Notes under the pieces: model-generated
The model's database searches: none
The model's input: only the letters and a program-made list of their open reading frames with translations
What the model was told of the DNA's origin: nothing
Shown here: one piece after another, positions 1-18,724 of the stretch
Layout: the number at the start of each line of letters is the position of its first letter
Numbering within the stretch: the stretch's first letter is position 1
Program-made: the position numbers and the translations under genes
Assembly (NCBI GenBank): GCA_046350415.1
Contig: JAXMAL010000001.1
Span: forward strand, 1,476,782-1,540,781
Source: Phycisphaerales bacterium
Lineage (GTDB): Bacteria; Planctomycetota; Phycisphaerae; Phycisphaerales; UBA1924
Reading direction: 5' to 3'
Length of the DNA stretch: 64,000 nt

Positions 1-2256
1 GATGCCGATACCCCTCAATTCGGCGTCCTGCACATTCGGATCAATCTCCCGAACCCCAATGATTGTGAGCGGGCACCAACGATTCGAGCAAGAAAACAGC
101 AATGGTGCGCCCTGAGAAATGGGCGGGTCAGGTTCGTCGTCGTATCCTGTTCGAGTTCTCATACTCATCTGGGCCGTCTTGTTGGGGCTACTCTGGCTGT
201 TCGCGCCTGTGAGCACGCCCCATGACCCATCGAGCACCCAGAAGCGGATGCGCCGTACCTTTGTTCCTGTGCTCCATCCTTGGCCAGATGCGAGTTCATT
301 CCAATTATTCGCGTCGTCCGCTGACAGATGCACGCGGCAGATGAACTTGTTGGTCGTTCCCGGAACCGCTCGGCGCGTGCGGATGCGGAACACCTCGGAA
401 GTCATCGACGGCGGAGGCGGAAGCGTTCTGGTTGAACTGTTGGGGAGAGTATCCACCCATTTCCCGGCGGTGTTCTTGGTGAGCTTCACGATTCCGGGGT
501 TGGGTACATCGTCGTCTGGGGCTTGATCGCCGATGTCGAACCAACAGTCTTCGATCGCAAGGTTCTTTCCACCGGGGGCGACAATGATCGGCTTGAACAC
601 GGTCGTGTCCGTTGGAACCGAGATGTACTGAAGCCCGCCATGAGTGTCCAACTGCGAATACGAGTTGAAAAAGACCCGAGCATCGTACAAAACGGCCGTA
701 CCTTCCGATCGCCCCCACGTGCTGAACACCTGCATCCAGCGATCCGGGTGACTCTGGTCCGGGCAGTACAAGAGCCGTGTTATTGCCAAACGCTGCGGAG
801 GATCACCCCCATCGTCGTCGCTCGCGTTCGAGAGTACCGCCACCAGCGAGCCCGCACCACTTTCCGCTATTGATTGTGCCAGGCAGAACACGATCCCGCG
901 AAGGCGCGAAAAGCTCGCATCGTACACCGACCCAAAGCCGGTCGTGAAGCCGTGCAGATGCTCGATCCAAAGTTGGTCTGTGCCGTTCTGCACCTCGGTT
1001 GGCTCCGGCAGAACCATTCGCGTCAGGACCTCGGCCTGTTCATCCGTTCCCCAGATCAAGGTGCTTCGATAGAGAGAAATGGGCACGCTGTTGCTGAACG
1101 GTTGCGCGAGCCGCGGTCTCGGCCCGAGCGCGACGCCGACCGGCTGCTGAGAGCGAGAGCCGGGCAACGGATCGGGCGGGCCATATTGGCGGAAGCCGTG
1201 GTACCCGGCAGAGGTCCAGGACCAGTGCTGGGGATCGGAGTAGTCGTTCCCAAGACTGTCAAGGCGGTAGCAGATGAATCGGCTGTGATACTGAGCATCG
1301 CCAACCGATACGACCATCTGAATGCTGTTGCTACCGTACTCGGTGACTTGGCAGGAATGCGCGTGGCATCCGGTGGAAAAGGTCCCGTCTCCCTGCTCGA
1401 TGTCTGCGTAGAAGGGGTTACCGCTGACGGTATCCCATCCCCACGGGTCGTTTTCGGTAGTCCGCTTGAACTTCAAGACGAAGACTCGCCCTCCGAGTGT
1501 AAGCGGGACCGGGGGGTCATCTTCCGAAAACGCTTGGAATCGATAGTCAGTCGAAGATACCCAGCACGTCAGCGGATGCGCGTCGCCACGGGCATGAGCG
1601 AGAGAAGCGTGGAGGCACCATTCGCGTCCGCGATAGAAATTGGGTTGATTGTCTCCGACAGAGGCGTCGTTCCACAGGTGAGTCCAGACGGGAGTCGTAC
1701 CTGTGAGCTGGGCAAAGCCCCATCCAACAATCTCGTAGGTTTCCGTTGAGCCAACCTTTTTCACTAACATGCCGCCGAGCACGACGAGGCCATGAACAAC
1801 TACCGCAGAATTGGGAACCAGCGAGTAGTCGGAGGACAAGCCGCTCGGAGTGAAGCACGCCGCTTCGGTTGGATTGTTCCCTTCGACGTTTACGAGCGAG
1901 ACGGTTGTCAGGTCGGTCCGCTTGACCTCCGACAGCGTTGATCCAGAGAGTACAAAGAGCTTTCCGTGGTCTTCATCGCGGAAGACCATCAGTGGCGTGG
2001 TTCCGTCTGCCGCGACGCCAGCCGCGAGAAGCCGTGATTCGGGCGCAGCGCCTTGGCTGCCAATTGTGACCTCCGTCGGGGCCACGACCGGAGCAATATG
2101 CGTGGCCCGATCGAATCTCGGCTTGTTCGAGATCACCGAAGCGCCGCTTGGATCGACCGTCGCGACAGCACGGGAAAACGTCACACCGAGAGGTGTATCG
2201 ACCCGGTAGAAGTTGCCGGTGTAGCTGCCGTCGAATCTGAATTTCCACTGTGCCAT
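1..2256 (-). CDS. Large orphan beta-rich protein, C-terminus beyond the window edge (>751 aa)
   Basis: Not in the ORF track because it runs off the left edge. The minus frame with codon first bases divisible by 3 is open from 2514 to 1. ATG at 2256 is preceded by GGGGGAAG (RBS-like). Hand translation: MAQWKFRFDGSYTGNFYRVDTPLGVTFSR...FSEDDPPVPLTLGGRVFVLKFKRTTENDPWGWDTVSGNPFYADIEQGDG...NVQDAELRGIGI. It is rich in W/G/T/S and I recognise no motif. Confidence 0.65.
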   Translation of the reverse strand, partial: MAQWKFRFDGSYTGNFYRVDTPLGVTFSRAVATVDPSGASVISNKPRFDRATHIAPVVAPTEVTIGSQGAAPESRLLAAGVAADGTTPLMVFRDEDHGKLFVLSGSTLSEVKRTDLTTVSLVNVEGNNPTEAACFTPSGLSSDYSLVPNSAVVVHGLVVLGGMLVKKVGSTETYEIVGWGFAQLTGTTPVWTHLWNDASVGDNQPNFYRGREWCLHASLAHARGDAHPLTCWVSSTDYRFQAFSEDDPPVPLTLGGRVFVLKFKRTTENDPWGWDTVSGNPFYADIEQGDGTFSTGCHAHSCQVTEYGSNSIQMVVSVGDAQYHSRFICYRLDSLGNDYSDPQHWSWTSAGYHGFRQYGPPDPLPGSRSQQPVGVALGPRPRLAQPFSNSVPISLYRSTLIWGTDEQAEVLTRMVLPEPTEVQNGTDQLWIEHLHGFTTGFGSVYDASFSRLRGIVFCLAQSIAESGAGSLVAVLSNASDDDGGDPPQRLAITRLLYCPDQSHPDRWMQVFSTWGRSEGTAVLYDARVFFNSYSQLDTHGGLQYISVPTDTTVFKPIIVAPGGKNLAIEDCWFDIGDQAPDDDVPNPGIVKLTKNTAGKWVDTLPNSSTRTLPPPPSMTSEVFRIRTRRAVPGTTNKFICRVHLSADDANNWNELASGQGWSTGTKVRRIRFWVLDGSWGVLTGANSQSSPNKTAQMSMRTRTGYDDEPDPPISQGAPLLFSCSNRWCPLTIIGVREIDPNVQDAELRGIGI

Positions 2257-2750
2257 GACTTCCCCCAGCCCATGCTGATACCTTTGCGACGCTCCAGCGG
2301 CACGCTCCGATGGGGCGACCCCCTCCAAGTCTGCCACGGATTCTCGGGCTGGCCACCCAATCTCCCGGCATCCGTCCGATATTCGCTCGTGATCTTGTCG
2401 GTGCCCGATGGCGAGCGTCCCTGCGGCCGTGGAACCTCCCCGAACTAGGGGGTGTGGGCAAGAGCTGTACCGAGGTCCGGCGCTTCCGATCCCCGAATGT
2501 CGCGGTTTACACTCTCAGGGCGGCGTCGGTGAATCGACAGATGGGGCGGTCCAGCGTCGAAGCCAATCACTGCGAATGTTGCAGCGAAGGGACGACCATC
2601 AGCGCTGCCCTTGCCAGTCGCGATTCCAGCGGCCGTTGCCGAGCATCGCAGCGTCCAGACGGCGGCCTCAGATCAACAGTCTGTTGAGTTGTGCCGCTCC
2701 CTCCGCGTGATCGGGTCACATGATGGTCGCTGTCGATGGTGCGGGGGCAC

Positions 2751-5700
2751 TCAGGTATCGGAATGGAGCTTCTTGAGGGCACCGTCGATGGCGGTATCGC
2801 CCGCGGACACCAGCGCGTCTATTTGATCCAGACACCAATCTCGAACGCCATCATTGGCATTCCCTTGAGCACGTTCGTAAATTCTGAGAACGCAATCTGC
2901 GGCCTTGTCCGCAAAGTACGCTCGCACATGACTGAGATCGCGGTTCATCGTGGTCATGTCGGTCCGCGCGCGCAGGACGACGTGGGCCAGTGCAGGCTGA
3001 AATGGCGAAAGGTCACCCGCATAGTCCGCAAGCGGCCTCATCAGATCATTGGGGTCTCTCAGGAACTGCGAACTGCGAGCAAACTTCATGGCCAACTCGC
3101 CTCCGAGCGGAGAACGCATGACTTCCTCATCCCGGAACACCTCAGCGGCCGCGCCCGCGACGGTGGCATCTTCGTCATCGAAAAAGCGGGGAAGCCGCTC
3201 TGCAGCGCGAAGGCCGTCAGGAGTCGTCTCAACAAGACGTGCTAATGCCCTAGCTACGCCGCGCCTGCACGCGACGTTGCCGCGCGCGCAAGAGCCCGCG
3301 ACGACCTTCATGCGCGACTTCTTCAGTTCGATAACCGTCGAGAACACCGCGCCCTTCTCTTCCACCTTCTCAATCCCACAGGAGGTCATTCGCTCGATGA
3401 TGGACTCGACCCGAGCATCGCAGCGCCACCACAAATAGTTCAACAGGCGGTTGAGGTGGTACGAGTACAGCACGCGAGCATCCGAACCGCCACACGCGAT
3501 CTCCAGCAGACGAATGGCACGGTCCGGATCATCATTCAACAGGGGACCAACTAGTCCAATTGCCGCGACCCGGACCGACGGATGGGGATCGCGAACGGCA
3601 GCTTCTGCAACGGTCTCGAACTGCGTCCGCTTCTCAGGGCGGTGCCACATCAGCCGTTCAATCGCGTGAATCGCTACTCCACGCGCGCCATTGATCGACA
3701 AGCTAACCACATCATCCGCCGACATGTCGCCAATCGCGGTTTGCCCATCCCTGTTTTCCATTGACGGGTCTGGATGCGACACTGCGTGCTCGCAAATGCG
3801 AGCAATCGTGGTATCGCTCCACGCCTCCGTTGGCCTTGCCTGCACCAGCCATCCCAGCCTCTTGGAAAGGTCTTTCGACTCCCTTTCCACCAATCGGTTC
3901 AGGCACCTCTCAATGTCAACGGCTGTAGCGGCCTTCCAATCCGCGCCAGCGCTGTTTGCCTCAGGCTCGGTGGCGGATGCCGCTTCGAGAATAGCCTCAA
4001 ACCAGTCGTCCCGTGCCTCCGGTGGTAGGCTTCGGGCTAGTTGTACGGCGCGAGAAGGGTTCGCCCTTGCCACTTGCTTGAACGACATGTCCGACAGGCG
4101 CTCTGGAGTTTCAAATGATGTCTTGTCGGATGACTCCCATCGCTTACTTATTCGAGTCGCCCACTTGCGACCCGCCATCAACTCCCAGTCACGATCCGAT
4201 ACGAATGGCAGTCGTGTTGTGGGAATCAGAGATCGCATCGAGCGAAGACGTACTCGCGATGATGGCGGCTTCCATCGTTCAGGGCGGGACATCAACCATT
4301 CAGGCGGGCGCGGCGATCGCAGGCGCTGAAGATCGTCGCAGAACTTCGCATCCCACTGAGCGAGCCTCGCTTTTCCAGCCTCGCCGAGTTGTTCGAGCGG
4401 TATCGCGGACAGCAAGAGGTATTGGGGCAAGCCAGTGAGGTTGGGGACTAAGTGTGAGCGACTTTCGAGAACATCCTCCCGTCGCCGCTCCATGTGACGC
4501 CGCTCTGAGGGATCACAGAATGCGAGAATTGCCGCCGAGAGACGCTCCCGGCACTCGGGTGCTGCTTCCCACAAGTGGCGCACCGCGCTTCTGCCACGCC
4601 AAAAGCGCCGTACCACATCAGAATGCCCGTGCGCGCCGAGACGACGTACGTCCGAGAGCAGCCATTCAATCGCCACTTGCGGAATGGGTGCGAGAAGACT
4701 TCCGATGACCGACACACAAAGCCGAGTCGCCGTGCGGCTCCGAAGTCGCAAAAAGGGAACGGTGTGCGTCCAAAGCAACGGAGAGTGATCCGAGGCCAGC
4801 GCCGTCGCGGCCTCTTCGAGCATCGTGCGCAGCAAGCGATGAAATAGACGGCAGGGGTGATCCCAGCTCAATCTTTCTCTTGACCCTGCGGCACCGACAC
4901 GCCATTGTCTAGCACGGTATTTCAGACTCCGCAGGAGTATCGGTGCGAGCGTAACCCATGTCTCTCGTGGGACGGTGCCAGCAAGCTGCTTCAGCATAGC
5001 GCGATCAGAGTCCTTTCCGCTCGCCCATCTGTCGAACTTCTCGGGAATGCCCCGCTTCATCAGGCCCGGCCGATAGGCGTGCGCAAGCTCCCATCGCATG
5101 AGGTGTGCGGCGAATCGCAACGCCGCCAACGGCGCGGACTTCGCAGCGTGCCGAATGTCGTAGGTGTCACACGAAAGCAGTTCTCGGCGTTGAAGACGGA
5201 AACGCCATCGGGAGGATTCAGGGGTGTCATGCTCCGTTCCGTACGGAAGACATCGCGCCAAGAGTAATGGCTCGATCCGATGCTCTTGTGTGAGAGCAAA
5301 GAGCAACGCGAACACAGCTTCCGCATCGGTTTCGGCCAGTAGGCGGAGCGTTCCGGCCGCCCAAAGAGCGTCACTCTGGTGCTCCGACAAGAGCAACCGG
5401 CGGAGGTGCCCAGCTTTGAGCAACTCGCGCCACCAAGCGACGGTGGTCCAGCACCGCATCCTGATGCGACGAGTCCAAGATGGGATGTCGTGCAACTTCT
5501 CTGCTATCGCAATCTCGGACTCCAACAGAGGCGCACACTCCGCCAGCAGTCGAAGGACCAGATCGCGAATGTGCTCCCGAATGCCCGTGCTCAACAGCAA
5601 GTCGTGAACAGCCTTGGCGTAGGTGTGCGGGTCGTCGTCACGCAGGATCGCCAGCAACTGCCGCATCTGCTCGCGCCTTGCGAGGGACTGATCGGTCGAT

Positions 5701-7445
5701 GCGACCCACGCCGCAACCGTCGTCTGTGCTGATGCAACGAGCCGAAATACTGAGAGCGCGATCTGGTGATCGAGGAATCGTTGGTGCGCAACTCTGAATC
5801 GTTCGGGATCAAGTGCATCGAGATAGGACTCGGAGGTCAAAGCGTTTAGGGTACGACGATCCGGCTCAATGTTCGCGGAAAAGTCGAGCCTGCCGCGGGC
5901 TTCCACAACCTCACGCACCCGAGCAATCACCGCCTCGGCTGTTGCACTTGGAATTCCGTGACGTGACTCAAGCCGCGACTTGACACTGTTCCAGTGCGCA
6001 GACAACAGGCTTGAAGCACCCGCGACCTTGGTCAGGTCCGCTCCGCGTTCAACCAAGTCAGACCAAATCCACAGCATCAGTGGGTTGCACAGCAAGGCCA
6101 ATTGCTCAGCAGTCGGGAGCGGCACTCCCCATTCTTTGATGATGCCCTCAACCTGCGCTGATTCCAGCGGCTTCACCTCGATCTCGCGCAAGCGGCCCTG
6201 CGTGTCCTGATCCTTGCGCCAATTCCGCAGGTTCGGATCATCCTTGATGTCAAAGGTCCGGCATGCCACCACGACGGTCACATTCTGCGAATGGATCGCG
6301 TCGTCGAGAAGCTGAACTGTGACATCCCACGCTGAGGTCGAGTGAACGCCCGCCCACCTTACCGCATCAAGTTGGTCCACAACCACAACCGCGCGCTTCC
6401 CGCCAGCAAGCCGTGTCGCGCATCGGTCGGGAGTATCTGGAAGTTCAAGTGTCTCCCTTGAGTAGCGAAGCAGTCCCCCGCCGGATGGCAGGGCGTTGTC
6501 GAGGCGGAGAGGCACCACGCAGATACCAGATTTGATGAGTCGTTCCACGGTTTCGAAGAGCACCCCAGATTTCCCGCTTCCGGCACCGCCATGCACAAGA
6601 ACCACCTGAGGCCCGACCGATTCCATGACGGTCTTCAAGATCGTCTCGGTCTCCTTTCGCGGGATCAGCTTGTGACGAATCAGATGCCTCCCGAGTTGCG
6701 AGAGGAAGCGATCGCGGAGCTTGTGAACGGCCAAGACGTGATCCGGGAGTCTGCTCCAATCGCGGGGCTCGATCTTGAACCTGTCAGATCGCAGGTCTGA
6801 GAGCAGTTTGTCGCAGGTGACAAGTTGCCCGAGTCGGGATTCCAGAGCGTCGCGAATCGCAATGCGTACGGCGGCCCCTGAACCGTGGAACAGATCACTG
6901 CACCGCGTTTCCACATGTCGTTGGAGATAGTCTGGAGTCGTATGTTCTTGCACGAAGACCCGAGAGAGCCATTCAACGCACTTCGCATCCGCCTCGTCCG
7001 TTGTGCCCGCTCGCCAGTGCTCGCGAACGCGCTCGAATGCGGGGGATAACGACTGCGACAGCGACTCCATGAACGCAGTGGAGCTAGCCGCCGCCCTTGC
7101 TCGCTCGGTGAGATCGGCCAACTCACCTGCACTGCTCGCGAGCACGAGCCGGAAACGGCTGGAGGGGTACCGAGTCAATTGATCGCGGATTGCACCAAGT
7201 AGCCCTTCACTCGCGAGAGTCGCGATTGTCCACTTCTTGTCGCGGCTTCCTTTGCACTGGACGCACTCAATAGTCCCATCCGGCAATCGGCGGCGATACT
7301 CGATTCCATCGAAATCGCTCCCGACGCCTTCCCATTCAATCGTCGTCGCGTTTCCCTCGATCAGTTCGAGAGCGGCAGCGACGACGCAGTGCGCCTCGAA
7401 CCGATTCCCCATCTTGTCCGCGAACCCGCCCGTCGGCCATCCCAT
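2751..7445 (-). CDS. Cap4/DUF4297-like PD-(D/E)xK nuclease + STAND-type P-loop NTPase + helical (HEAT-like) repeat protein, 1564 aa; Avs-like candidate defence protein
   Basis: The N-terminus (aa 1-230) has the nuclease-fold pattern IEWEGVGSDFDGIEY...TIECVQCKG (D..E..QxK; nt 7251-7340). Walker A is GGAGSGKS (nt 6567-6590), Walker B is VVVVDQLD (nt 6366-6392), followed by VVVACRTFD (STAND/NACHT 'TSR'-like). The remaining ~1100 aa are L/R/A/E-rich helical sequence with a HEAT-type motif, DPHPSVRVAAIGLVGPLL. Confidence 0.85.
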   Translation of the reverse strand: MGWPTGGFADKMGNRFEAHCVVAAALELIEGNATTIEWEGVGSDFDGIEYRRRLPDGTIECVQCKGSRDKKWTIATLASEGLLGAIRDQLTRYPSSRFRLVLASSAGELADLTERARAAASSTAFMESLSQSLSPAFERVREHWRAGTTDEADAKCVEWLSRVFVQEHTTPDYLQRHVETRCSDLFHGSGAAVRIAIRDALESRLGQLVTCDKLLSDLRSDRFKIEPRDWSRLPDHVLAVHKLRDRFLSQLGRHLIRHKLIPRKETETILKTVMESVGPQVVLVHGGAGSGKSGVLFETVERLIKSGICVVPLRLDNALPSGGGLLRYSRETLELPDTPDRCATRLAGGKRAVVVVDQLDAVRWAGVHSTSAWDVTVQLLDDAIHSQNVTVVVACRTFDIKDDPNLRNWRKDQDTQGRLREIEVKPLESAQVEGIIKEWGVPLPTAEQLALLCNPLMLWIWSDLVERGADLTKVAGASSLLSAHWNSVKSRLESRHGIPSATAEAVIARVREVVEARGRLDFSANIEPDRRTLNALTSESYLDALDPERFRVAHQRFLDHQIALSVFRLVASAQTTVAAWVASTDQSLARREQMRQLLAILRDDDPHTYAKAVHDLLLSTGIREHIRDLVLRLLAECAPLLESEIAIAEKLHDIPSWTRRIRMRCWTTVAWWRELLKAGHLRRLLLSEHQSDALWAAGTLRLLAETDAEAVFALLFALTQEHRIEPLLLARCLPYGTEHDTPESSRWRFRLQRRELLSCDTYDIRHAAKSAPLAALRFAAHLMRWELAHAYRPGLMKRGIPEKFDRWASGKDSDRAMLKQLAGTVPRETWVTLAPILLRSLKYRARQWRVGAAGSRERLSWDHPCRLFHRLLRTMLEEAATALASDHSPLLWTHTVPFLRLRSRTATRLCVSVIGSLLAPIPQVAIEWLLSDVRRLGAHGHSDVVRRFWRGRSAVRHLWEAAPECRERLSAAILAFCDPSERRHMERRREDVLESRSHLVPNLTGLPQYLLLSAIPLEQLGEAGKARLAQWDAKFCDDLQRLRSPRPPEWLMSRPERWKPPSSRVRLRSMRSLIPTTRLPFVSDRDWELMAGRKWATRISKRWESSDKTSFETPERLSDMSFKQVARANPSRAVQLARSLPPEARDDWFEAILEAASATEPEANSAGADWKAATAVDIERCLNRLVERESKDLSKRLGWLVQARPTEAWSDTTIARICEHAVSHPDPSMENRDGQTAIGDMSADDVVSLSINGARGVAIHAIERLMWHRPEKRTQFETVAEAAVRDPHPSVRVAAIGLVGPLLNDDPDRAIRLLEIACGGSDARVLYSYHLNRLLNYLWWRCDARVESIIERMTSCGIEKVEEKGAVFSTVIELKKSRMKVVAGSCARGNVACRRGVARALARLVETTPDGLRAAERLPRFFDDEDATVAGAAAEVFRDEEVMRSPLGGELAMKFARSSQFLRDPNDLMRPLADYAGDLSPFQPALAHVVLRARTDMTTMNRDLSHVRAYFADKAADCVLRIYERAQGNANDGVRDWCLDQIDALVSAGDTAIDGALKKLHSDT

Positions 7446-7485
7446 GCCATATCGTACCGGAATCGAACAATCCGGGTGGGGTCAT

Positions 7486-7502
7486 TTCAACAGACTGTTG
7501 AA
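7486..7502. repeat. 17-bp perfect palindrome TTCAACAG-A-CTGTTGAA, candidate operator
   Basis: Read directly from the sequence. It lies about 41 nt upstream of the NTPase ATG (7445, minus) and about 39 nt upstream of the ATG at 7541 (plus), in a divergent AT-richer region. Confidence 0.4.
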
Positions 7503-7540
7503 TTGAGATTGAAACCGACGTGCTCGTCACCGCTTGCCAG

Positions 7541-7966
7541 ATGATCGCAGCGACGCCGCTCTTGGAGATGCGCGCAGTATGTGAGAGTTGCGGTTGCGCC
7601 TATGCCTCCATCGGCGCAGCGTTGTTTCTGTCCCGCCTGCGGCCACAATTCAGCAGCGAGCACTGTCGACGCGGCGCGTTCCGCCGTTAGTGCCACCATA
7701 ACAGCATCGATGAGATTGCGGGAACCGTCGCTGATGCAGGCGGCACGGACTTTGCTCGCGACGTGACCAGAACCCTGTGCGAGTCAACTCTGGAACGTCT
7801 TGTCGCGGCGTTTCAGAGATTCGCGGAGGCCGCATTTCATAAACTTCCTTGCGCTGCCACGATGAGCATCCGGCGCAGTGCCTTCCAGAGCATCGACGAG
7901 GGTGATGTCCTCTGGCGTGAGACTGTCGGAAAGGGTTACTCCGACTTGATGGCTGCCCCGAGATGA
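7541..7966 (+). pseudogene. Small plus-strand ORF interrupted by one in-frame TAG (7688-7690); possible gene remnant or unknown small protein
   Basis: The frame starting at ATG 7541 reads MIAATPLLEMRAVCESCGCAYAS...RR*CHHNSIDEIAGTVADAGGTDFARDVTRTLCESTLERLVAAFQRFAEAAFHKL...GYSDLMAAPR. The second half (track ORF 7763-7966) looks helical and protein-like. The first half is weak, and I recognise no domain. Confidence 0.25.
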
Positions 7967-7972
7967 ACGCTT

Positions 7973-9169
7973 TCACCCATACTTCAGCGCGAAGTCGTTC
8001 GCACGCCGAGTGTCCGTGTCGGTGTATGCCAACGTGGTCCGCAGCGACGAGTGATCCAGCAGCGTGCTGGCGAGATCAAGACTCTCAGTGCGTGTCGCAA
8101 AGTCGGCAAAGGTGTGACGCAGTTGGTGGGGGTGCCAGTGTTGAACGCCCGCCTTCACGCACGCGCGGGCGACGGCTTTTCGATAGGACTTCCGCGTGTA
8201 CATCGTTCCGGGAGCACGCTCGCGCTTCGCTGCGCCTTGCGCGGCCTTCATTGCTCTCAGCACCTGCGATGCCTGCACCGGAGTCCTGCGTGCGATACGC
8301 ATCGCTGAATGCCGCGCCGCTTCGCTCAGTGCCGGGGAGAACATGGGCTGTTCGGGATTGCGATCCATGAAGCCCATCAGGAGCAACTGCGCTTTCGGCC
8401 CGAAGCGAATCGTCCTTTCGCGATTGTGGTGTTTCGTCTTGTGGTGAAGAGGGCGATAGAGCCAGATGTCGCCGCTCTTGTCGATCTCAGACCACCGCAG
8501 CCTTCGGATTTCACCCGGTCGCGCGCCCGTCAGTATCTGGAGTTGGACCATGGCGCGGACATCGTGGGGGAGGTACGGAAGTGTCTTCTCGACAACCTCT
8601 GGCGCAACGGGCATGACGCGCTTCGTTTCTCGCCCGGCTTCCCCGACGCGAAGCGCGCGGACGCCGCACAGCCGGAGGTGAACCGATGGTTCAACGAGTT
8701 CCTCTCCAACACCCCATTTGAACACGGTTCGAATTCGACGAGTCGCCTCATTGATCCCGTTGCGGCTCCAATTCAATCGGTCCATCTCCGCGCGCAGTGC
8801 CTTCAACTGCGTTGGGCCGAACTGCTCGACCAAGGTATCGCCGTAGAGCCTTCGCAGTGCTTTCAGGGCGCGCTTGATCGGCTCCAGTGACTCCGGCTGG
8901 AGGGATCGTTTGGAGGCGAGCCAGTATCGCGCGATGAGTTCCTTGACGCTCAATTCCCGCCGTTCAGCCTCGCACAGCGGCAGCGAGCCGTCGTTGGCGA
9001 GGAACTCGGCGATCATCCGCTTGTATCGCTGGTTTCCGTCCTTGTCCCCCTCGGGGCCGAAGTAGAAGTCCCTGCCTTTGAAGCGGGCGCGGCGAAGACC
9101 GCTCCCCTTGTGGAGGCAGAGTTGCGGGAATTTCACAGTCTTGGGGCCAGCGGCGGCACGTCGGGGCAT
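7973..9169 (-). CDS. int: Tyrosine recombinase / phage-type integrase
   Basis: 398 aa. The catalytic signature is spread as TGARPGEIRRLRW (Arg), HQLRHTFA (HxxR) and LLDHSSLRTTLAYTDT (His..Tyr). GGAGA lies 7 nt upstream of the ATG. The gene sits directly 3' of the tRNA. Confidence 0.92.
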   Translation of the reverse strand: MPRRAAAGPKTVKFPQLCLHKGSGLRRARFKGRDFYFGPEGDKDGNQRYKRMIAEFLANDGSLPLCEAERRELSVKELIARYWLASKRSLQPESLEPIKRALKALRRLYGDTLVEQFGPTQLKALRAEMDRLNWSRNGINEATRRIRTVFKWGVGEELVEPSVHLRLCGVRALRVGEAGRETKRVMPVAPEVVEKTLPYLPHDVRAMVQLQILTGARPGEIRRLRWSEIDKSGDIWLYRPLHHKTKHHNRERTIRFGPKAQLLLMGFMDRNPEQPMFSPALSEAARHSAMRIARRTPVQASQVLRAMKAAQGAAKRERAPGTMYTRKSYRKAVARACVKAGVQHWHPHQLRHTFADFATRTESLDLASTLLDHSSLRTTLAYTDTDTRRANDFALKYG

Positions 9170-9185
9170 GGCGTGGTCTCCGGTG

Positions 9186-9213
9186 CCGAAAAGTGGTAAA
9201 TACCACTTTTCGG
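9186..9213. repeat. 28-bp perfect inverted repeat CCGAAAAGTGGTA-AA-TACCACTTTTCGG in the int leader
   Basis: 13-bp arms with a 2-nt centre, read directly. It lies 17-44 nt upstream of the int start codon, between int and the tRNA 3' end. Confidence 0.5.
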
Positions 9214-9284
9214 GGATTCCTGAGCCACTCTGCCCGACACAGGCAGGTACGCATAAGTGCTGCGTTCAGCGTGTTTTTCGTCAA

Positions 9285-9358
9285 TGGGCGCAACAGGACT
9301 CGAACCTGTGACCTCGGCTATGTGACAGCCGCGCTCTAGCCAACTGAGCTATGCGCCC
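9285..9358 (-). tRNA. tRNA-Val (anticodon CAC)
   Basis: The reverse complement GGGCGCATAGCTCAGTTGGCTAGAGCGCGGCTGTCACATAGCCGAGGTCACAGGTTCGAGTCCTGTTGCGCCCA folds as a cloverleaf. Acceptor: GGGCGCA/TGCGCCC. D stem: GCTC/GAGC. Anticodon stem: CGGCT/AGCCG with loop GTCACAT. T stem: ACAGG/CCTGT with loop TTCGAGT. CCA is not encoded. Confidence 0.9.
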
Positions 9359-9434
9359 GACTTTTCAGGCCCCGGGCTCGCGCCCACGGCGGGGAGAACC
9401 ATAGCGCCGCTCCCCCTCCAAGTCACTCGCCAAG

Positions 9435-9752
9435 TCACTCGTCGTCCTCGCCGCCCCCGTCCGCCATCGCCTCATAGCTCGCGATCAGGCGCCCCATCAC
9501 CACGGTGTACGTCAGCGTCCCCTCCGCCGCGTCGACCTCGGGCAGGAACTCCTCGTCCAGCGACGACAGCAGGTCGGGCACGTCCTCCTCGCGCCAGCCG
9601 GAACTCTCCAGCAGCACCACCGTCCCGCTCACCGGCGTGCGAGGACCAAGTCCGAGGAAGTGCAGATCAACGAGCGCGGCCTCGCGACCGTCCTTGTACG
9701 CGATGAACCGCTCCGACGAGAGTGTGCGCAGCGTTCGCTTCCATGTAATCAT
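9435..9752 (-). CDS. Small acidic hypothetical protein (105 aa)
   Basis: ORF with core-like high GC3 and plausible composition (MITWKRTLRTLSSERFIAYKDGREAALVDLHFLG...). No motif recognised. Confidence 0.45.
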   Translation of the reverse strand: MITWKRTLRTLSSERFIAYKDGREAALVDLHFLGLGPRTPVSGTVVLLESSGWREEDVPDLLSSLDEEFLPEVDAAEGTLTYTVVMGRLIASYEAMADGGGEDDE

Positions 9753-9867
9753 GGGACGGCTCCACAGTTCGCCCAGAGCCTACCAGATCCGCGCCGCCTC
9801 GCCAGCACGCCGCGATCCACTCATCCACCGTGATCGTCGCCCTGCGGCTCCGCGCACTGCGCGAGCC

Positions 9868-10731
9868 TCAATACTGGCCCGCGGGCGTGCTCGAACCGCC
9901 CGAGCTCGGGCGCGACAGCGGGTCCGGGCCGACCAGCTGCTTGGTGATCACGATCTCCACACGCTGGTTCTTGCGTTGGTCCGATTCGGTGTACGCACGC
10001 GGGACGGCCCGCTCGTTGTCGGCGCACGCCACCAGCCGGATGTTCTCCCACTTCACGCCGTTGGTCGCCATCAGGTTCGCCACCGCCTGGGCCCGGTCGA
10101 ACGCGAGCTTGTAGCCGCGATCGCCGCCGGCGCGCATCCGCTCGGTGGGGGAGACGTGCCCGCGCACCTCGATCACGAATCGCTGGTCCTTGGCGCGGTT
10201 GGCCATGTCGATGACCGCGTCGCGCGCGGCGGCGTTGAACTGCGCCGAGCCGTCCTCAAAGCTCACGGTGTTCGACACGTTCGAGACATCGGTCTGCGTC
10301 GGGCCCTGGCCGATCTCCTGGTTGCCGGGCGGGCCTTCCTGCTTGAGCGGGCCGAACATCTTCTCTTTCTTGCGACGGACCAGCGCGGCCTCGCGCGGGT
10401 CGCGTGAATCGATGCTCACCGGATTGTTGAACGCGGCCCGGATCCCGATCGCCAGGTCGAGCATGCGATCCTCGGCCGACATGCTCTCGCCCGCGCCGTT
10501 CTCATCGGGATTTCCGCCCATGACGGGATCGGCCTTGGGCCCCATGTTCATCGCCAGCAGGATCACGAACAGGCCCATCATGAGCGCGGTGTTATCCGCG
10601 AACGAGATCATCCACTCGGGAACGCCCTCGTGCTCCTCGTGCCCGCCGCCATGGCCGCCGCCGTGACCGCCGCCGCCGTGGCCTCCCCCGCCATGTTCTT
10701 TCTCGTCATGTCCCTCTTCATGGTCCGACAT
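9868..10731 (-). CDS. motB: Flagellar-type stator protein MotB (OmpA-like C-terminal domain) with a His/Gly-rich N-terminus
   Basis: EWMISFADNTALMMGLFVILLAM is the plug/TM segment with the conserved Asp. The C-terminus has an OmpA/MotB fold pattern (VEIRGHVSP...GYKLAFDRAQAVANLM...NQRVEIV). It starts 36 nt after motA. Confidence 0.85.
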   Translation of the reverse strand: MSDHEEGHDEKEHGGGGHGGGGHGGGHGGGHEEHEGVPEWMISFADNTALMMGLFVILLAMNMGPKADPVMGGNPDENGAGESMSAEDRMLDLAIGIRAAFNNPVSIDSRDPREAALVRRKKEKMFGPLKQEGPPGNQEIGQGPTQTDVSNVSNTVSFEDGSAQFNAAARDAVIDMANRAKDQRFVIEVRGHVSPTERMRAGGDRGYKLAFDRAQAVANLMATNGVKWENIRLVACADNERAVPRAYTESDQRKNQRVEIVITKQLVGPDPLSRPSSGGSSTPAGQY

Positions 10732-10767
10732 GGTGGTTCCTCGCGTGTGCCCGCGGCGAATTCACGA

Positions 10768-11550
10768 TCAGGCCGCGACCTTGACGTTGCCGCGTGTGAC
10801 GGCCGGGATGAACGACATCATGCGGTCGAGCGTGACGCGCGGGTTGTCGCCCGCCTGGATCGAGAGGATGCCCTGGAGCATCATCTCGCGGGCCAGGATC
10901 TCTTCCGACGAGCGGAGCGCCAGCTTGTCGCCGATCGGGCCGGCGACCGCGTTCGCGAGCACCGTGCCGTACATCGTCGCGACGACGGCCAGCGCGAGCA
11001 TCTTGCCCATGGCGCCGATGTCGCCGTCGCCCAGCTGCCCGAACATGCCGATCTGCCCGATCAGCGTGCCCACCAGCCCCCACGCCGGGCCGTACACCTT
11101 CACCAGGTCGAACAGCTTCTTGCCCGACTTGTGCCGGTCCTGCATCGCCAGCACTTCCATGCGCAGCGTCATTTCGATATTGGAGGGGTCCACGCCGTCG
11201 ACCGCCATCTTCAGCCCCGCCGCCAGGAACGGGTCCTCGATCTTGCGGGTCTCGGACTCCAGCGCCAGGATGCCGTCGCGACGCGCCTTCTCCGCCAGCG
11301 CCTGAATAACCTGGATAATCTCCACCGGGCTCTTGCCCTTGTGGAACATGAAGGTCTTGATGTAACCGCCGACGGCCATCACGCGGTTGAGCGGGAGCGC
11401 CATGAACACGACCGACATCGAACCGCCGAACACCGTGAACACGCCCTCCTGCGAGTAGAACATCGCCAGGTGCCCGTGCGATCCCTCGTAGGCGACGAAG
11501 CCCAGACAGAAGACACCGATCAGCGTTCCGATGAGACTGGATTTGTCCAC
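10768..11550 (-). CDS. motA: MotA/TolQ/ExbB-family proton-channel stator protein
   Basis: GPAWGLVGTLIGQIGMF and ALAVVATMYGTVLANAVAGPIGDKL match the MotA channel helices. The track ORF extends to 11679, but GTG at 11550 (VDKSSLIGTLIG...) with an upstream GAGAGAGG is the more likely start. Confidence 0.82.
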   Translation of the reverse strand: MDKSSLIGTLIGVFCLGFVAYEGSHGHLAMFYSQEGVFTVFGGSMSVVFMALPLNRVMAVGGYIKTFMFHKGKSPVEIIQVIQALAEKARRDGILALESETRKIEDPFLAAGLKMAVDGVDPSNIEMTLRMEVLAMQDRHKSGKKLFDLVKVYGPAWGLVGTLIGQIGMFGQLGDGDIGAMGKMLALAVVATMYGTVLANAVAGPIGDKLALRSSEEILAREMMLQGILSIQAGDNPRVTLDRMMSFIPAVTRGNVKVAA

Positions 11551-11836
11551 AGTGTCCGGCCTCTCTCTGAAGCGATGACATGGCGGGGCACGCGTGCGCA
11601 CCCACCCGTCAAGGACATCGGCCGGATCGGCGCACGGATGGAGCGCCGGTGCCGCGTGCGCCGCGCCCGAGCGGATCACGTGCCGGGTGTGACGGTTGTG
11701 CCGCGGGAGTTATGGGAAGTTGAGGTTCACCGCGGAGTTCGCGGAGAGCGCAGGACGGACGCGACCTTGCGCTCGATCTCGTGATGGGCCCGTCTCGGAC
11801 GCCGCACCCACGCACCATCGAACGCCATGATCCGGC

Positions 11837-12253
11837 TCAGCGTGCCGGTTTGCCGCAATTCGGACACGTCGGGGGTTTTGGCTTCTGCCCCGGGGCCGGC
11901 GGCTCGTGCTTTGGCACATAGAACTTCTTGCACGACTCGCAGCGCGACGCCCGCGCCGTGTTCTGCTTCTTGCACGCCGGGCACGCCGGGTTCTGGTCCT
12001 CGTGGTCGCGATAGAACGCGCCGAGTTCCGCGGTCGAGAGCGTGAACTCCTTCTTGCACGACGCTTCGAGGCACAGCCAGCGCGTCCGGGTCTCGTCGTA
12101 TTCTTCAGCGCCGTCGCCGCTGCTTGATGACCCGAGCGAGCGCCACGCGATCACCGCCGCGCCCACCAGCGCCACCGCCGCGATCGAGAGCTTGATGATC
12201 GCGCTCTTCTCTATTGCCAGTACTCCTCGTGCGGCTTGCCGTCGTTGTTCCAC
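11837..12253 (-). CDS. Membrane-anchored double zinc-ribbon protein
   Basis: An N-terminal basic stretch plus TM helix ([19 protein letters not shown]) is followed by four CxxC pairs (CLEASC, CPAC, CESC, CPNC). The start is uncertain; I chose GTG 12253, which overlaps the upstream gene. Confidence 0.5.
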
Positions 12254-13020
12254 TTCCGCCGGGCCTCGAGCGTCGGCGCCACCATGTCGCGCTGCTTCTT
12301 GGCGCTGGCGTGCCCGTCGCCCCACACGAAGTTCGATCCGCCCGCGTGGCGCGGGCTGGGCCACTCCGCGTCCGCCGCGTCGCTCGGGTCGAGCGCGGTG
12401 TCCCAGTTGAAGTCCGACTTGCTGTCGGCCAGCATCACCATCTCCGACGGGAACACCACGCGCGTGTCCTTCACCTCGCCGAAGTCCTTGTGCCCGACCC
12501 ACCCGCCCAGGCCAAGGTGCGGAACCGTGAACTCCATCACGCCCCAGTCGTTGTAGCCATAGCTGAACCCCGACACGTTGTTCAGCCGCTTCTCGTTCTC
12601 GTCATAGCCGTACTCGGCCTTGGTGTTCGCCTTGTACACGCGCTGCCACGTGAACTCGGGGAGCACCGACGGGCAGTTGAAGACTTTCATCACGCCGTTG
12701 AGCTGAAAGCGCAGACGCGGCGGCCACACGATGTACGTCGGGCCCTGCCACGTGTGATGCCCCGGGAAGTAGCCCTTGTTCGCCGCCTGGTAATGCACCA
12801 GCGCCTGCCCCAGCTGGCTGAGATTCGCCAGGCACACCGTCTGGCGCCCCGCATCGCGCGCCTGCCCGAGTGCAGGCAAGAGAATCGCGATGAGCAGCGC
12901 GATGATCGCGATCACGACAAGCAGCTCAATGAGCGTGAACCCGCGCCCCGCGGCACGCGTCCTTCTCGCTCGATCGCAAGGGCTATCAGGCCGTTCGCAC
13001 GATGGCGGGCTCTGGTCCAT
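12211..13020 (-). CDS. Prepilin-type N-terminal cleavage/methylation domain protein (DUF1559-like pseudopilin)
   Basis: [25 protein letters not shown] is the classic type IV pilin-like leader and hydrophobic segment. A C-terminal H-x9-DG-like motif ([13 protein letters not shown]) is typical of the planctomycete DUF1559 family. Confidence 0.85.
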
Positions 13021-13095
13021 GCATCCATGCTACCAGAACCCCTCCCCCCGACACAACGCCCGCGAGATTGCCAAACTCCGCGCGTACCCTTTCCC

Positions 13096-13620
13096 ATGCG
13101 CCACATCACGCTCATCACCACCGGCGGAACGATCGAAAAGACCTACGACGAGGCCACCGGAAGCCTCGAAAACAAGCGATCCATCGTCCGGCGCATGCTC
13201 AAGCGTCTGCGCCTCGAAGACACCAGCATCAGCGTCATCGAGCTCATGAGCAAGGACAGCCTCGTCATGACCGACGACGACCGCGCCCGCATCATCGAGG
13301 CCGTCCGCGCCTGCGGCGGGGCGGTCAAGCCCGGCGTCACCTCGCCCATCCACGGCGTGGTTATCCTCCACGGCACGGACACCCTCTCGATCACCGGCGA
13401 TCGCATCGCCGCCGAGATCAGCACGCCGTCGGTCCCCGTCGTCCTCACCGGCGCGTTCCGCCCCTACGAGATGACGCGCTCCGACGCGCTCCAGAATCTG
13501 ACCGAGGCGATCTTCGCGACCGGCGTGCTCTCGCCCGGCGTGTACTGCGTCTCGCACGGCCGCGCCCTTCCCTTCCCCGGCGTGAAGAAGGACCGCGAGC
13601 GCTGGACGTTCGTGAAATAG
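13096..13620 (+). CDS. Short asparaginase-family protein (N-terminal domain only, 174 aa)
   Basis: Only the 3' third of track ORF 12214-13620 is credible. It starts at ATG 13096 and reads MRHITLITTGGTIEK...ILHGTDTL, carrying both asparaginase threonine motifs (TGGTI, HGTDT). Confidence 0.75.
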   Translation: MRHITLITTGGTIEKTYDEATGSLENKRSIVRRMLKRLRLEDTSISVIELMSKDSLVMTDDDRARIIEAVRACGGAVKPGVTSPIHGVVILHGTDTLSITGDRIAAEISTPSVPVVLTGAFRPYEMTRSDALQNLTEAIFATGVLSPGVYCVSHGRALPFPGVKKDRERWTFVK

Positions 13621-13715
13621 GCACCGGGCATCAGGTGTCGGGTATCCGAATCCACTGACCTTCCGCCCCGTGAGCACGCGGCGAGCGGCGCGGAGTCGGC
13701 GGCTTCGATTGCATA

Positions 13716-14321
13716 TCACATGCCCGCGGCGGCGCGGGCGGCCCCCATCGCGGCCGAAATGGCCGCGTCGTAGTTGGGTTCGGTGGCGACCTCGGGGACG
13801 ATTTGCTGATAGCGGATGATGCCGCAGGCGTCGATGACGGTGACGGCACGGGCGAGCAGGCCGTGCTCGCGGATGCGGAGGGCGTAGCGGTCGCCGACCT
13901 GGCGTTGCTTGCTGTCGGAGAGGGTGATGACGCGGTCGATGCCGGCGGCGGCGCACCAGCGTTTCTGGGCGAAGGGGAGGTCCATCGAGACGGTGAGCAC
14001 GACGAACTTGTCGCCGAGCGCGGAGGCACGCTCGTTGAAGGCGCGGGTCTCGGCGTCGCAGACGGGCGTGTCGAGCGAGGGGACGGTGGAGAGGATGACG
14101 ACCTTGCCGCGGAAATCGCTGAGGTGTTTTTCGGAGAGGTCGGTGGCGACGGCGGCGAAGTCGGGGGCGTCGTCGCCGACGGCGGGGGCGCGGGCCGCGC
14201 CCTCGAGCGTAACGGGCTTGCCTTTCATGGTGACCAGGGCTTCGCGCGCGTGGGGGCGCGGCGAGGTGGTGCAGGCGGGGAGGAGGGCGAGGAGGAGGGC
14301 GGCGGGGAGGAGGAGTTTCAT
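13716..14321 (-). CDS. tpx: Thiol peroxidase (atypical 2-Cys peroxiredoxin), lipoprotein-type signal
   Basis: APDFAAV...FRGKVVILSTVPSLDTPVCD...KRWCAA is the Tpx signature. The leader is MKLLLPAALLLALLPAC. The ATG at 14321 overlaps the upstream stop as ATGA; an alternative start is at 14360. Confidence 0.85.
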   Translation of the reverse strand: MKLLLPAALLLALLPACTTSPRPHAREALVTMKGKPVTLEGAARAPAVGDDAPDFAAVATDLSEKHLSDFRGKVVILSTVPSLDTPVCDAETRAFNERASALGDKFVVLTVSMDLPFAQKRWCAAAGIDRVITLSDSKQRQVGDRYALRIREHGLLARAVTVIDACGIIRYQQIVPEVATEPNYDAAISAAMGAARAAAGM

Positions 14322-15043
14322 GGGGGATTGTTGCACTCGTGGTGTGGAGGCGTCGGCCATTCGCGTTTCGGCGCCTGCTCAAATCTTGGCGAGCCGAGCG
14401 ACTGCATCCAGTCTCTCCACGTCCTGACGCTCATCGTTGAGAGATCGCCCAGTGACACCTTCATCTCTGGCATCCGAGCATGGATGTGGCGGATAAACTC
14501 GTTGTCGTTGCACGCGTTTGCACTGATGGTGAGTTCGTCTGGAAAATCGCTCCACCAGAGCAAAGCATGAACGGTTTGTCCGTTGAATGTGGCCGCGAAT
14601 TCTGCTGACCATTCGAATGTCGGGTACTCGTACGCCCGAAGGAACGTGGCACTAAACTCGCTGACAAGCCAGTCGCGAACAAGCAACCAATCGACGCGAC
14701 CCGATGAATTGGACGGTAGGTCGAACGAGGCTTCAAGCGTGCCGTCGGGAAGTTTGGCGAGATTTGGCGCGAGGTACCGGGGCTGCGCGTTCTGATCGGT
14801 CGGGGCCGGATTGGAATCGCTTTCGGTATTCGTGGGCCAACGAACACAGCCGGTCACAATGAGACTCACGCCAGCGAACATGAGGCCGAAGGCGAACAAC
14901 CAAAGTCCGAGGCCACTATTCCCCCACCGAAACTGCAAATACGCCAAGAATACGAGGACAACTCCGAGTATCGTGATTCCACTTCCAACAACGATTAGAC
15001 ATTGGGAGAAGAGTTTGCGGCAGGCTGTGCCTGATTCTGGCAC
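14318..15043 (-). CDS. Hypothetical membrane-anchored protein (2 TM + ~150-aa soluble domain), lower GC
   Basis: Two clear TM helices (LIVVGSGITILGVVLVFLAYL, LWLFAFGLMFAGVSLIVTG) are followed by a W/F/E-rich domain. It starts 12 nt after the thiC stop and overlaps the tpx start by 4 nt. Confidence 0.55.
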   Translation of the reverse strand: MPESGTACRKLFSQCLIVVGSGITILGVVLVFLAYLQFRWGNSGLGLWLFAFGLMFAGVSLIVTGCVRWPTNTESDSNPAPTDQNAQPRYLAPNLAKLPDGTLEASFDLPSNSSGRVDWLLVRDWLVSEFSATFLRAYEYPTFEWSAEFAATFNGQTVHALLWWSDFPDELTISANACNDNEFIRHIHARMPEMKVSLGDLSTMSVRTWRDWMQSLGSPRFEQAPKREWPTPPHHECNNPP

Positions 15044-15055
15044 GGGTCACCTTCC

Positions 15056-17158
<2,103 letters not shown>

Positions 17159-17160
17159 AC

Positions 17161-17247
17161 TCGCTTCCCTCCGCCGGTGCGAACCGGGTCAGGTTCAACG
17201 GGTGCATCTCAGCGTTCGGCCCCGTATGGCCGCCGCGCCCCGAGCGA
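17161..17247 (-). promoter_or_regulatory. TPP (THI-box) riboswitch in the thiC leader
   Basis: The minus-strand RNA reads UCGCUCGGGGCGC...GCUGAGAUGCACCCGUUGAACCUGACCCGGUUCGCACCGGCGGAGGGAAGCGA. It has the conserved CUGAGA, ACCC, GAACCUGA, CCGG..ACCGGCG and AGGGA elements and a P1 helix UCGCU/AGCGA. The 3' GGAGGGAAG doubles as the thiC Shine-Dalgarno. Confidence 0.82.
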
Positions 17248-17324
17248 ACGCGGGATGGTAGGGACGCTGAGGCGTGGCCTCGGCGGCGGGCGAGAAACGT
17301 GCGGCTTTCGTTGGTGAGGGGGCT

Positions 17325-18458: not shown

Positions 18459-18724
18459 GGGGCTTTTCACGGACAATCTCCTGGTGCGGGAACTCGTTTG
18501 AGTCGCGTTTGGATTGCGGACGCAGAGCGTGAGCGGCCGCATGGCAAGCTATGACCGAATGTCGCGGGCACGCCGTTTCATCCATCCGTGCGTTGTTTTT
18601 GTGTCGGGCGGCTTCTGGATCGCCGTGATTTGTGGTGCGCGTCGCGAAAAACCCGCGTACGCGTGGCGTTCATCGTGAATTGGCGGTTCCTTCTCGCGGG
18701 AATCGATCGAATCGGTCGGCGGGA

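Follow-up and report, generated by a model that had tools for sequence, protein, structure and literature searches.

A probable Avs7-type antiviral STAND receptor, deeply divergent in sequence, in the cargo slot of a tRNA-Val element of a Phycisphaerales bacterium

We analysed a 64,000-nt window of DNA from a Phycisphaerales bacterium (UBA1924; assembly GCA_046350415.1, contig JAXMAL010000001.1, positions 1,476,782-1,540,781), concentrating on one large gene at 2751-7445 (-), which begins with an ATG and encodes a protein of 1,564 amino acids (aa) followed by a stop codon (positions and strands here and below are in window numbering). We found that the product of this gene is very probably an Avs7-family antiviral STAND receptor in a single chain which, by analogy, would share the general mechanism of Salmonella enterica Avs7 (SeAvs7): a profile of its protein family (hereafter A1) matched SeAvs7 with E = 1.1e-75. 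The Avs7 family was characterised in 2026 (Lee et al., bioRxiv 10.64898/2026.01.04.697583; Nature 657:735, PMC13581612), and its architecture and mechanism are already published; judged by the sequence comparisons below, the window protein is a deeply divergent member of it. A first-pass annotation of the same DNA had read the protein as a tripartite antiphage receptor (i.e., Cap4 nuclease, STAND NTPase and helical sensor in one chain) of a possibly undescribed subtype; homology to SeAvs7 supports the tripartite reading, and the subtype turns out to be the described Avs7.

The open reading frame (ORF) is intact, as both the ORF call and the translation confirmed, and the motifs quoted in the first-pass annotation (the nuclease block, Walker A, Walker B, VVVACRTFD and a HEAT-type string) are all present at verified coordinates, with the nuclease block IEWEGVGSDFDGIEY...TIECVQCKG located at aa 36-66 (nt 7248-7340). 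A word-indexed search returned 25 full-length-type, co-linear homologues of 1,468-1,622 aa, the closest seven of which (1,559-1,606 aa) are 43-54% identical to the window protein across the whole length. The annotated start codon is credible because these closest homologues share the same M-x-x-P-x-GGFADK opening. Relatives are encoded at 501 loci in species-representative genomes, which span many bacterial phyla and some archaea, and among the best 80 of those loci 68 carry the nuclease, the NTPase and the N- and C-terminal halves of the sensor in a single ORF. Given the full-length co-linear homologues, the number of loci and the prevalence of the one-ORF architecture, we conclude from sequence conservation that 2751-7445 is a real gene, not a chance ORF of a GC-rich genome. 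One 1,802-aa ORF (locus L044, 540-5945) contains the NTPase of the family and both sensor halves without the Cap4 domain; its N-terminal effector is presumably another one, consistent with effector swapping in Avs7.

Searches with the window protein alone reached no curated threshold in Pfam, NCBIfam or PADLOC, and gave sub-threshold matches to the P-loop only. Specifically, Pfam returned nSTAND_NTPase5 (E = 1.6e-4) and left the N-terminus without a match, PADLOC returned its candidate model PDC-M54A (E = 5e-9) and Avs2 (E = 0.032; aa 272-397), both in the P-loop region, and NCBIfam yielded nothing useful. Since single-sequence searches went no further than this, family profiles were needed. 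When profile A1 was compared with the PDB sequences, it matched 9n00_A (and also 9n01 and 9yix) with the E-value given above, covering SeAvs7 in two stretches, 48-644 and 982-1399; the next PDB match had E = 1e-4 and was confined to the P-loop, with Avs4 at E = 0.2. Entries 9N00, 9N01 and 9YIX are the apo and capsid-bound structures of S. enterica Avs7 (Lee et al., Nature 657:735, PMC13581612).

Profile-profile alignment of A1 with 18 proteins of the SeAvs7 clade, which had been retrieved with a fragment transcribed from the HMMER alignment and are partial proteins of at most 81% identity, gave a probability of 100% and E = 5.3e-56 over 952 columns (hhalign), running from residue 6 (the N-terminal GG motif) into the sensor. 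The two groups are additionally bridged pairwise by an intermediate protein, P0159, which matches the window sensor with 8e-66 and SeAvs7 with 9e-18, and they have the PADLOC candidate PDC-M54A in common (found in 20 of 24 members of the window protein's family, with a best E-value of 5e-29, and in 10 of the 18 SeAvs7-clade proteins). Taken over the profile search, the hhalign alignment and the P0159 bridge, the NTPase, winged helix and sensor are thus co-linear with those of verified Avs7 proteins.

Three other assignments were considered and ruled out. Membership of Avs1-Avs5 was rejected because the PADLOC models for these groups matched weakly and in the P-loop region only (Avs2 E = 0.032 for the window protein); across the family they produced weak Avs2 matches alone, in the NTPase region and in no more than 3 of 24 members. 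A Cap4 effector of CBASS was rejected because the protein has no SAVED or CD-NTase match and its neighbours in the island are an integrase and an element backbone gene only. Identity with defence-associated sirtuin 1 (Dsr1) was rejected because neither Pfam nor PADLOC found a SIR2 or Dsr1 match and a STAND NTPase is present.

The clearest part of the protein is the NTPase module, comprising nucleotide-binding, helical and winged-helix domains, at aa 255-600 (5646-6683, -). Within the family, Pfam found nSTAND_NTPase5 in 17 of 24 members and AAA_16 likewise in 17 of 24. An AlphaFold2 (AF2) model of aa 1-620 had a mean predicted local distance difference test score (pLDDT) of 88 and a predicted template-modelling score (pTM) of 0.76, and its best Foldseek match was EcAvs4 (E = 2.5e-12), followed by NOD2, NLRC4, CED-4, Dark and SAMD9, all of which are STAND proteins; the earlier proposal of a P-loop NTPase of the STAND type is therefore upheld by fold and by family. 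Four motifs could be placed within the module: Walker A, GGAGSGKS (aa 286-293; 6567-6590, -), in which G286, G289, G291 and K292 are invariant and which aligns with GSGKT of SeAvs7; Walker B, VVVVDQLD (aa 353-360; 6366-6389, -), with D357, Q358 and D360 invariant, aligned with VVIDSLD; the block VVVACRTFD (aa 391-399; 6249-6275, -), with C395, R396 and D399 invariant, aligned with C394-R395; and a winged-helix histidine motif, FRVAHQRFLDH (5766-5798, -), with H554 invariant, aligned with the FGHQ motif. At the level of single residues, K292/S293 correspond to K291/T292 of SeAvs7, D357 to D358, R396 to R395 and H554 to H545, where the SeAvs7 numbers were counted by hand from the profile alignment and the text of the paper has the Walker A pair as Thr291/Lys292. 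In SeAvs7, D358 coordinates ATP/Mg, R395 contacts the gamma-phosphate of ATP and H545 contacts the beta-phosphate of ADP (bioRxiv 10.64898/2026.01.04.697583; PMC13581612). Because R396 is invariant and aligned with R395, we read VVVACRTFD as the sensor-1 arginine motif, in keeping with the earlier suggestion that this block resembled the 'TSR' sensor motif of STAND proteins.

The N-terminal domain (aa 1-235; 6741-7445, -) is supported as a Cap4-type nuclease with a PD-(D/E)xK fold, an assignment made through family profiles, Pfam on the homologues and the AF2 model. A profile of this N-terminal family matched nothing but the Cap4 domain of SeAvs7 (residues 46-193, E = 2.4e-9), and Pfam Cap4_nuclease (PF14130) was the only family to match several of 40 homologous N-termini (7 of 40, best E = 3e-5); N-termini of the SeAvs7 clade in turn match the PADLOC models of LmuA, a Cap4-type nuclease. 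In the AF2 model the first 235 residues follow the order alpha-beta-beta-beta-alpha-beta, which is that of the PD-(D/E)xK core, in which E17 falls on the first helix, E39 directly after strand 1 and E49 where strand 2 begins, while strand 3 carries Q63-x-K65. Across the 40 homologues, which come from different phyla, G6, K11, E17, E39, K65 and W72 are invariant, G7, G13 and Q63 are conserved in at least 90%, and position 49 keeps an acidic residue. When aligned with the SeAvs7 clade (hhalign), the acidic, Q-x-K and N-terminal glycine motifs fall into register, so that Q63-x-K65, E39 and D46/E49 correspond to Q60-x-K62 of SeAvs7 and the acidic residues preceding it. Foldseek searches with aa 1-620 were dominated by the NTPase and cannot isolate the nuclease fold. 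The first-pass annotation had proposed a Cap4/DUF4297-type N-terminus from the protein itself; the domain type stands on the family profiles, but it could not be assigned from the single protein.

The remainder of the protein, aa 601-1564 (2754-5645, -), appears to be an all-helical HEAT/TPR-like sensor, as indicated by AF2, Foldseek and the profile match to SeAvs7. This region is rich in leucine, alanine and arginine (12% each), and its AF2 model is entirely helical (pLDDT 83, pTM 0.57). Profile positions 995-1396 align with SeAvs7 982-1399 with an independent E-value (i-E) of 3.5e-19, and a search with the sensor only retrieved 831 cluster representatives from 1.84 billion, most of them proteins of 1,520-1,590 aa matched at about 645-1540. 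HEAT-type Pfam models were found in 9 of 24 family members, which together with the HEAT solenoids returned by Foldseek agrees with the earlier view that the sensor is HEAT/ARM-like rather than classic TPR. The core of one HEAT-type repeat, DPHPSVRVAAIGLVGPLL, lies at aa 1286-1303 (3537-3590, -); within it V1291 and R1292 do not vary, and at least 90% of family members retain D1286. A short C-terminal helix is predicted by AF2 at aa ~1553-1563 (2754-2789, -; helix 954-964 of the C-terminal model), and in Avs7 a conserved C-terminal helix (SeAvs7 1511-1521) has a role in releasing autoinhibition (PMC13581612). The window protein also has an Arg/Pro-rich insertion of ~30 residues at aa 1038-1070 (4236-4334, -), modelled with pLDDT below 50 (model residues 439-471), which was found only in this protein and in homologues P0001-P0006 (alignment columns 1301-1340), i.e., it is specific to the clade.

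Several results weigh against placing the protein in Avs7, or against carrying the SeAvs7 mechanism over to it. Identity to the SeAvs7 clade is only 17% in the hhalign alignment, and the protein alone had no match in the PDB sequence set. Its nuclease is likewise invisible to single-sequence searches: Pfam Cap4_nuclease did not match the protein itself, which reached no nuclease threshold in Pfam, NCBIfam or PADLOC. Foldseek with the sensor model returned generic HEAT solenoids only (CAND1, importins and CRM1) at a template-modelling score (TM-score) of ~0.2, with no 9N00, 9N01 or 9YIX entry among its PDB matches, although the PDB copy that was searched seems not to include SeAvs7. Finally, the SeAvs7 residues that contact EF-Tu (Q999, D1003, K1044, H1048 and D1059) are replaced here by residues of the K, A, L and R type, as read by hand from the alignment of the family profile to SeAvs7, and the low-confidence Arg/Pro-rich insertion falls within the stretch aligned with the EF-Tu-binding region. 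Set beside the profile matches, the conserved motifs and the P0159 bridge, these points leave us with Avs7 membership and a SeAvs7-like general mechanism as the reading we consider very probable.

SeAvs7 at rest is an autoinhibited, ADP-bound monomer (bioRxiv 10.64898/2026.01.04.697583; PMC13581612). Its bilobed sensor clamps a monomer of the HK97-fold major capsid protein, aided by host EF-Tu; on activation ADP gives way to ATP, four protomers join via their NTPase and Cap4 domains, and double-stranded DNA is degraded (PMC13581612). We assigned a SeAvs7-like cycle to the window protein because every residue class required for it is conserved. By this analogy, the protein would rest as an autoinhibited, ADP-bound monomer until its helical sensor (aa ~601-1564), presumably of two lobes, closes around a freshly synthesised phage protein, for which an HK97-fold major capsid protein would be the most probable candidate. 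Binding would free the NTPase and allow ADP to be exchanged for ATP, held by Lys292, Asp357 and Arg396; a tetramer would then form through the NTPase and nuclease domains, and the assembled Cap4-type nuclease (E39, E49, Q63 and K65) would degrade double-stranded DNA and so abort the infection.

How far the analogy extends to the trigger is a separate matter, and we put the chance that the protein senses a phage major capsid protein at about even. An alternative, which we regard as distinctly improbable, keeps the same STAND and Cap4 logic but has the sensor recognise another phage protein, or a capsid fold peculiar to phages of Planctomycetota, in which case the protein would functionally form a distinct specificity class. 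Such a shift would fit a sensor that is at most 32-34% identical to relatives outside its own 50%-identity cluster, that carries a clade-specific insertion and that lacks the EF-Tu interface residues; moreover, at least 13 different phage proteins are sensed by STAND families with similar helical sensors (PMC13581612). Yet the sensor is homologous to that of SeAvs7 (i-E = 3.5e-19 over SeAvs7 982-1399), recognition in Avs7 rests on shape and not on specific contacts, and Avs7-type sensors keep capsid recognition even on unrelated effectors such as Dsr1 (bioRxiv 10.64898/2026.01.04.697583). The clade to which the window protein belongs is a single 50%-identity cluster, seen so far only in Phycisphaerae-type genomes and metagenomes; that it constitutes a separate Avs7 specificity class, directed at a different phage component or at a non-canonical capsid of Planctomycetota phages and working without a host co-factor, seems to us rather unlikely. 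Dependence on EF-Tu is itself unlikely on the sequence comparison, because the EF-Tu-associated clade is small (192 of 1,757 Avs7 representatives; PMC13581612), the contact residues are not conserved and the Arg/Pro-rich insertion lies in that region.

We also weighed the idea that the protein is a non-immune STAND protein with a signalling or regulatory role, or a decaying and inactive copy, given that the published tree has STAND clades without a defence role scattered among those with one (bioRxiv 10.64898/2026.01.04.697583). This appears exceedingly improbable: the ORF is intact and of homologue-like length, all catalytic and nucleotide-binding residues are kept, the protein carries a predicted nuclease effector, and its gene occupies a slot of horizontally acquired cargo, where other elements have Lamassu or restriction-modification genes.

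The slot belongs to an integrative element at a tRNA gene, in agreement with the first-pass annotation, which had spoken of a tRNA island. The tRNA-Val(CAC) at 9285-9358 (-), found by ARAGORN and by Rfam (tRNA, 64.7 bits), is the likely integration site and has its 3' end toward a tyrosine integrase of 398 aa at 7973-9169 (-; Pfam Phage_integrase E = 5.8e-19, PHROG integrase E = 5.9e-33). GC content is 0.59-0.61 in the segment of the Avs7-like gene and 0.66-0.68 in the rest of the window, and GC content at third codon positions (GC3) is 0.66 in the Avs7-like gene, 0.74 in the integrase and 0.69 in the gene downstream of the Avs7-like gene, whereas core genes have 0.88-0.90. Positions 1-9400 contain no repeat of the tRNA 3' end, so the far boundary of the element presumably lies beyond the window.

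To the left of the Avs7-like gene lies a second large ORF. Its frame is free of stops from 2514 on, the first ATG in it stands at 2256, and the left edge of the window cuts it short. GC content varies over its codon positions as in coding sequence, and the window contains the first 752 codons (1-2256, -) of what its homologues show to be a protein of ~1,000 aa: there are eight homologues, seven of them full-length at 994-1,034 aa, and the four that are named by organism all come from metagenome-assembled genomes of Phycisphaerae/Phycisphaerales, one being 95% identical, which points to a Phycisphaerales origin of the window as well. The protein had no match in Pfam, PHROG or PADLOC. Homologues of it at L088 10001-12985, L089 7993-11097 and L091 8571-11588 are flanked by serine or tyrosine recombinases, with a DUF7453 gene following in L088 and L089, and each has other cargo beside it: an MmeI-type restriction-modification gene and HsdM in L088, an FGE-sulfatase gene and a gene without known function in L089, and a four-gene block in L091 and in a further locus, L092. 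On this distribution, the downstream gene is a backbone gene of a mobile element and stands directly beside a variable defence block.

The loci L091 and L092, two metagenome contigs, are sister elements at the same tRNA and allow the exchange of cargo to be followed in detail. Comparing the window with L091 (blastn), we found that 9326-7973, which contains part of the tRNA and the integrase up to its stop codon, is 91% identical to L091 1-1354, and that 2799-2150 is 82% identical to L091 8029-8689, with nothing alignable between these two blocks. The second block (2150-2799, -; 82% to L091/L092) is a conserved backbone flank: it takes in the 3'-terminal 48 nt of the Avs7-like gene, a conserved non-coding leader and the beginning of the backbone gene. 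The 5.2 kb that separate the two blocks in the window (2800-7972) consist of the Avs7-like gene and a 527-bp stretch upstream of it; in L091 the slot (1355-8028, 6.7 kb) holds a Lamassu system (LmuA with a Cap4 nuclease, LmuC and LmuB) and the candidate helicase PDC-S28, and L092 is alike. The left junction thus lies within the last 48 nt of the Avs7-like gene. L091 and L092 keep these 48 nt, including the stop codon and with a one-base deletion, as intergenic sequence. Because this 3' remnant is retained and the C-terminus that it encodes is conserved among homologues from unrelated contexts, the sequences are most simply explained by an Avs7-like gene that formerly filled this slot in the L091 lineage and has since been replaced.

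The same comparison bears on whether the receptor acts alone. The first-pass annotation had pointed to two unusual neighbours, and the large downstream ORF could be imagined as the second component of a two-gene system, being on the same strand as the Avs7-like gene and 495 bp from it. We consider such a system very improbable: homologues of the downstream gene are lacking from the sequence around receptor relatives at 87 loci, its own homologues adjoin unrelated cargo (MmeI restriction-modification, FGE-sulfatase and Lamassu), and the recombination junction falls between the two genes, with L091 and L092 keeping only the backbone gene, its leader and the last 48 nt of the Avs7-like gene. As the downstream gene is absent from the flanks of the 87 loci and persists where the STAND gene has been replaced, we take it not to be a partner of the receptor, which leaves the Avs7-like gene as a single-gene system; of the two neighbours, the downstream ORF is a real gene, but the upstream interrupted ORF found no support.

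This upstream ORF was rejected as a gene, given that it is part of the swapped module, matches no family, lacks a clear coding signal and is not conserved. Specifically, the interval 7487-7972, between the integrase stop codon and the Avs7-like start, contains a frame on the minus strand with one internal TGA and a frame on the plus strand with one stop; it showed no family match, had an ambiguous codon-position GC pattern and has no counterpart in the sister element, and we treat it as non-coding or ambiguous. Two further gene candidates were discarded: an ORF at 874-1749 (+), which is an antisense shadow of the backbone gene, and a '134-aa gene' that had been called ahead of the L091 backbone gene and whose window counterpart has in-frame stops.

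Directly before the backbone ATG we observed a conserved leader of ~110 nt (window ~2256-2365, -; L089 7976-8067; L088 9914-10003; L091 8481-8572). Between elements with backbone proteins that share only 46-54% identity, this stretch is 88% identical or almost unchanged. RNAalifold predicted a hairpin in it without compensatory changes, and Rfam gave no match; with neither covariation nor an Rfam family, a structured RNA was rejected, and the sequence may serve as a conserved leader or bind a protein.

Beyond the sister elements, homologues of the Avs7-like protein adjoin an IS66 fragment, a Lit-like Peptidase_U49 gene or a serine recombinase. The first-pass annotation had named a conserved housekeeping context as an observation that would speak against a defence role; what we found near the homologues instead are recombinases, the IS66 fragment and defence-type genes. 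Two of these neighbourhoods are of interest in their own right. At L083 5570-9198, the homologue P0004 (53% identical) has as neighbours a Lit-like Peptidase_U49 gene and a large TPR protein. Lit is the classic defence protease whose cleavage of EF-Tu is set off by a capsid peptide of the phage; next to a relative of a receptor that binds capsid and EF-Tu, a Lit-like gene is a curious thing to find. In L087, a 2,070-aa nSTAND1-WD40 protein (9200-15412) and an EAD1-trypsin protein (16681-18587) are encoded beside P0008 together with a large serine recombinase, and the region is a defence island with several STAND proteins.

Elsewhere in the window, the first core gene past the tRNA (9868-10731, -) encodes a protein of 287 aa whose N-terminus bears a repeat rich in His and Gly, HGGGGHGGGGHGGGHGGGHEEHEG, followed by a predicted membrane segment. 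A thiamine pyrophosphate (TPP) riboswitch (RF00059, 62.7 bits) was detected at 17149-17252 (-), at the 5' end of a 700-aa ORF (15056-17158, -) with whose predicted start it overlaps by 10 nt; this ORF presumably serves thiamine biosynthesis. Near 14 kb (~12000-16000) the GC skew swings abruptly from -0.08 to +0.18, and near 61 kb (58000-64000) it drops to -0.28; the probable cause is runs of co-oriented genes, not a landmark of replication.

Taken together, these results extend an experimentally characterised receptor family to Phycisphaerales (Planctomycetota), a lineage whose phage defence has barely been studied; the published list comprises 3,272 Avs7 homologues (bioRxiv 10.64898/2026.01.04.697583; PMC13581612). 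They also describe a clean natural exchange of defence cargo, in which the same tRNA-Val integrase and backbone enclose either an Avs7-like gene or Lamassu with PDC-S28 and in which a 48-bp scar is left behind, and they mark the slot between integrase and backbone as a place to seek more defence genes in these bacteria. A divergent sensor without the EF-Tu interface offers a contrast against which the generality of capsid sensing and of host-factor use in Avs7 can be judged. What is new here is modest, namely the evidence for the hotspot and the divergence of the sensor, and the current understanding of the family is not overturned.

Among known systems, several share parts of this architecture. 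EcAvs4 and SeAvs3 (PDB 8DGF and 8DGC; Gao et al. 2022) likewise combine an N-terminal PD-(D/E)xK-type nuclease, a STAND NTPase and a helical sensor; however, there is no family-level sequence match to them (Avs4 E = 0.2, P-loop only), and they sense the portal or terminase via unrelated sensors. Cap4 of CBASS and LmuA of Lamassu belong to the same nuclease domain family (PF14130/DUF4297), whereas the nuclease here is predicted to be under the control of a fused STAND switch, and no SAVED domain, CD-NTase, LmuB or LmuC was seen in the island segment (nt 1-9358). Dsr1 has an Avs7-type capsid-binding sensor (bioRxiv 10.64898/2026.01.04.697583), but it differs in its SIR2 effector and in having no STAND NTPase, and its link to the window protein's family, in which PADLOC found no Dsr1 match, is indirect. 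PDC-M54, an uncharacterised PADLOC candidate, is the best match in the defence library (E = 5e-9), but it covers aa 271-406 only.

The closest likeness is to SeAvs7. Both are single-gene systems of similar total length (1,523 aa in SeAvs7 and 1,564 aa here) in which a Cap4 nuclease is followed by a STAND NTPase with a winged helix and by a helical sensor of ~950 aa, and both have the Walker A lysine, the Walker B aspartate, the sensor-1 arginine, the winged-helix histidine, the Q-x-K motif and the short C-terminal helix (the last being predicted here). By contrast, Walker B reads DSLD in SeAvs7 and DQLD here, and the first N-terminal motif is G..SNRGD.YQ there and GGxADKxGNR[YF]E here. The window protein has not kept the EF-Tu contacts of SeAvs7 and has its Arg/Pro-rich insertion in that region. 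The two are related at ~17% profile-level identity, without a pairwise match, and their hosts are an enterobacterium on the one side and a member of the Phycisphaerales (Planctomycetota) on the other.

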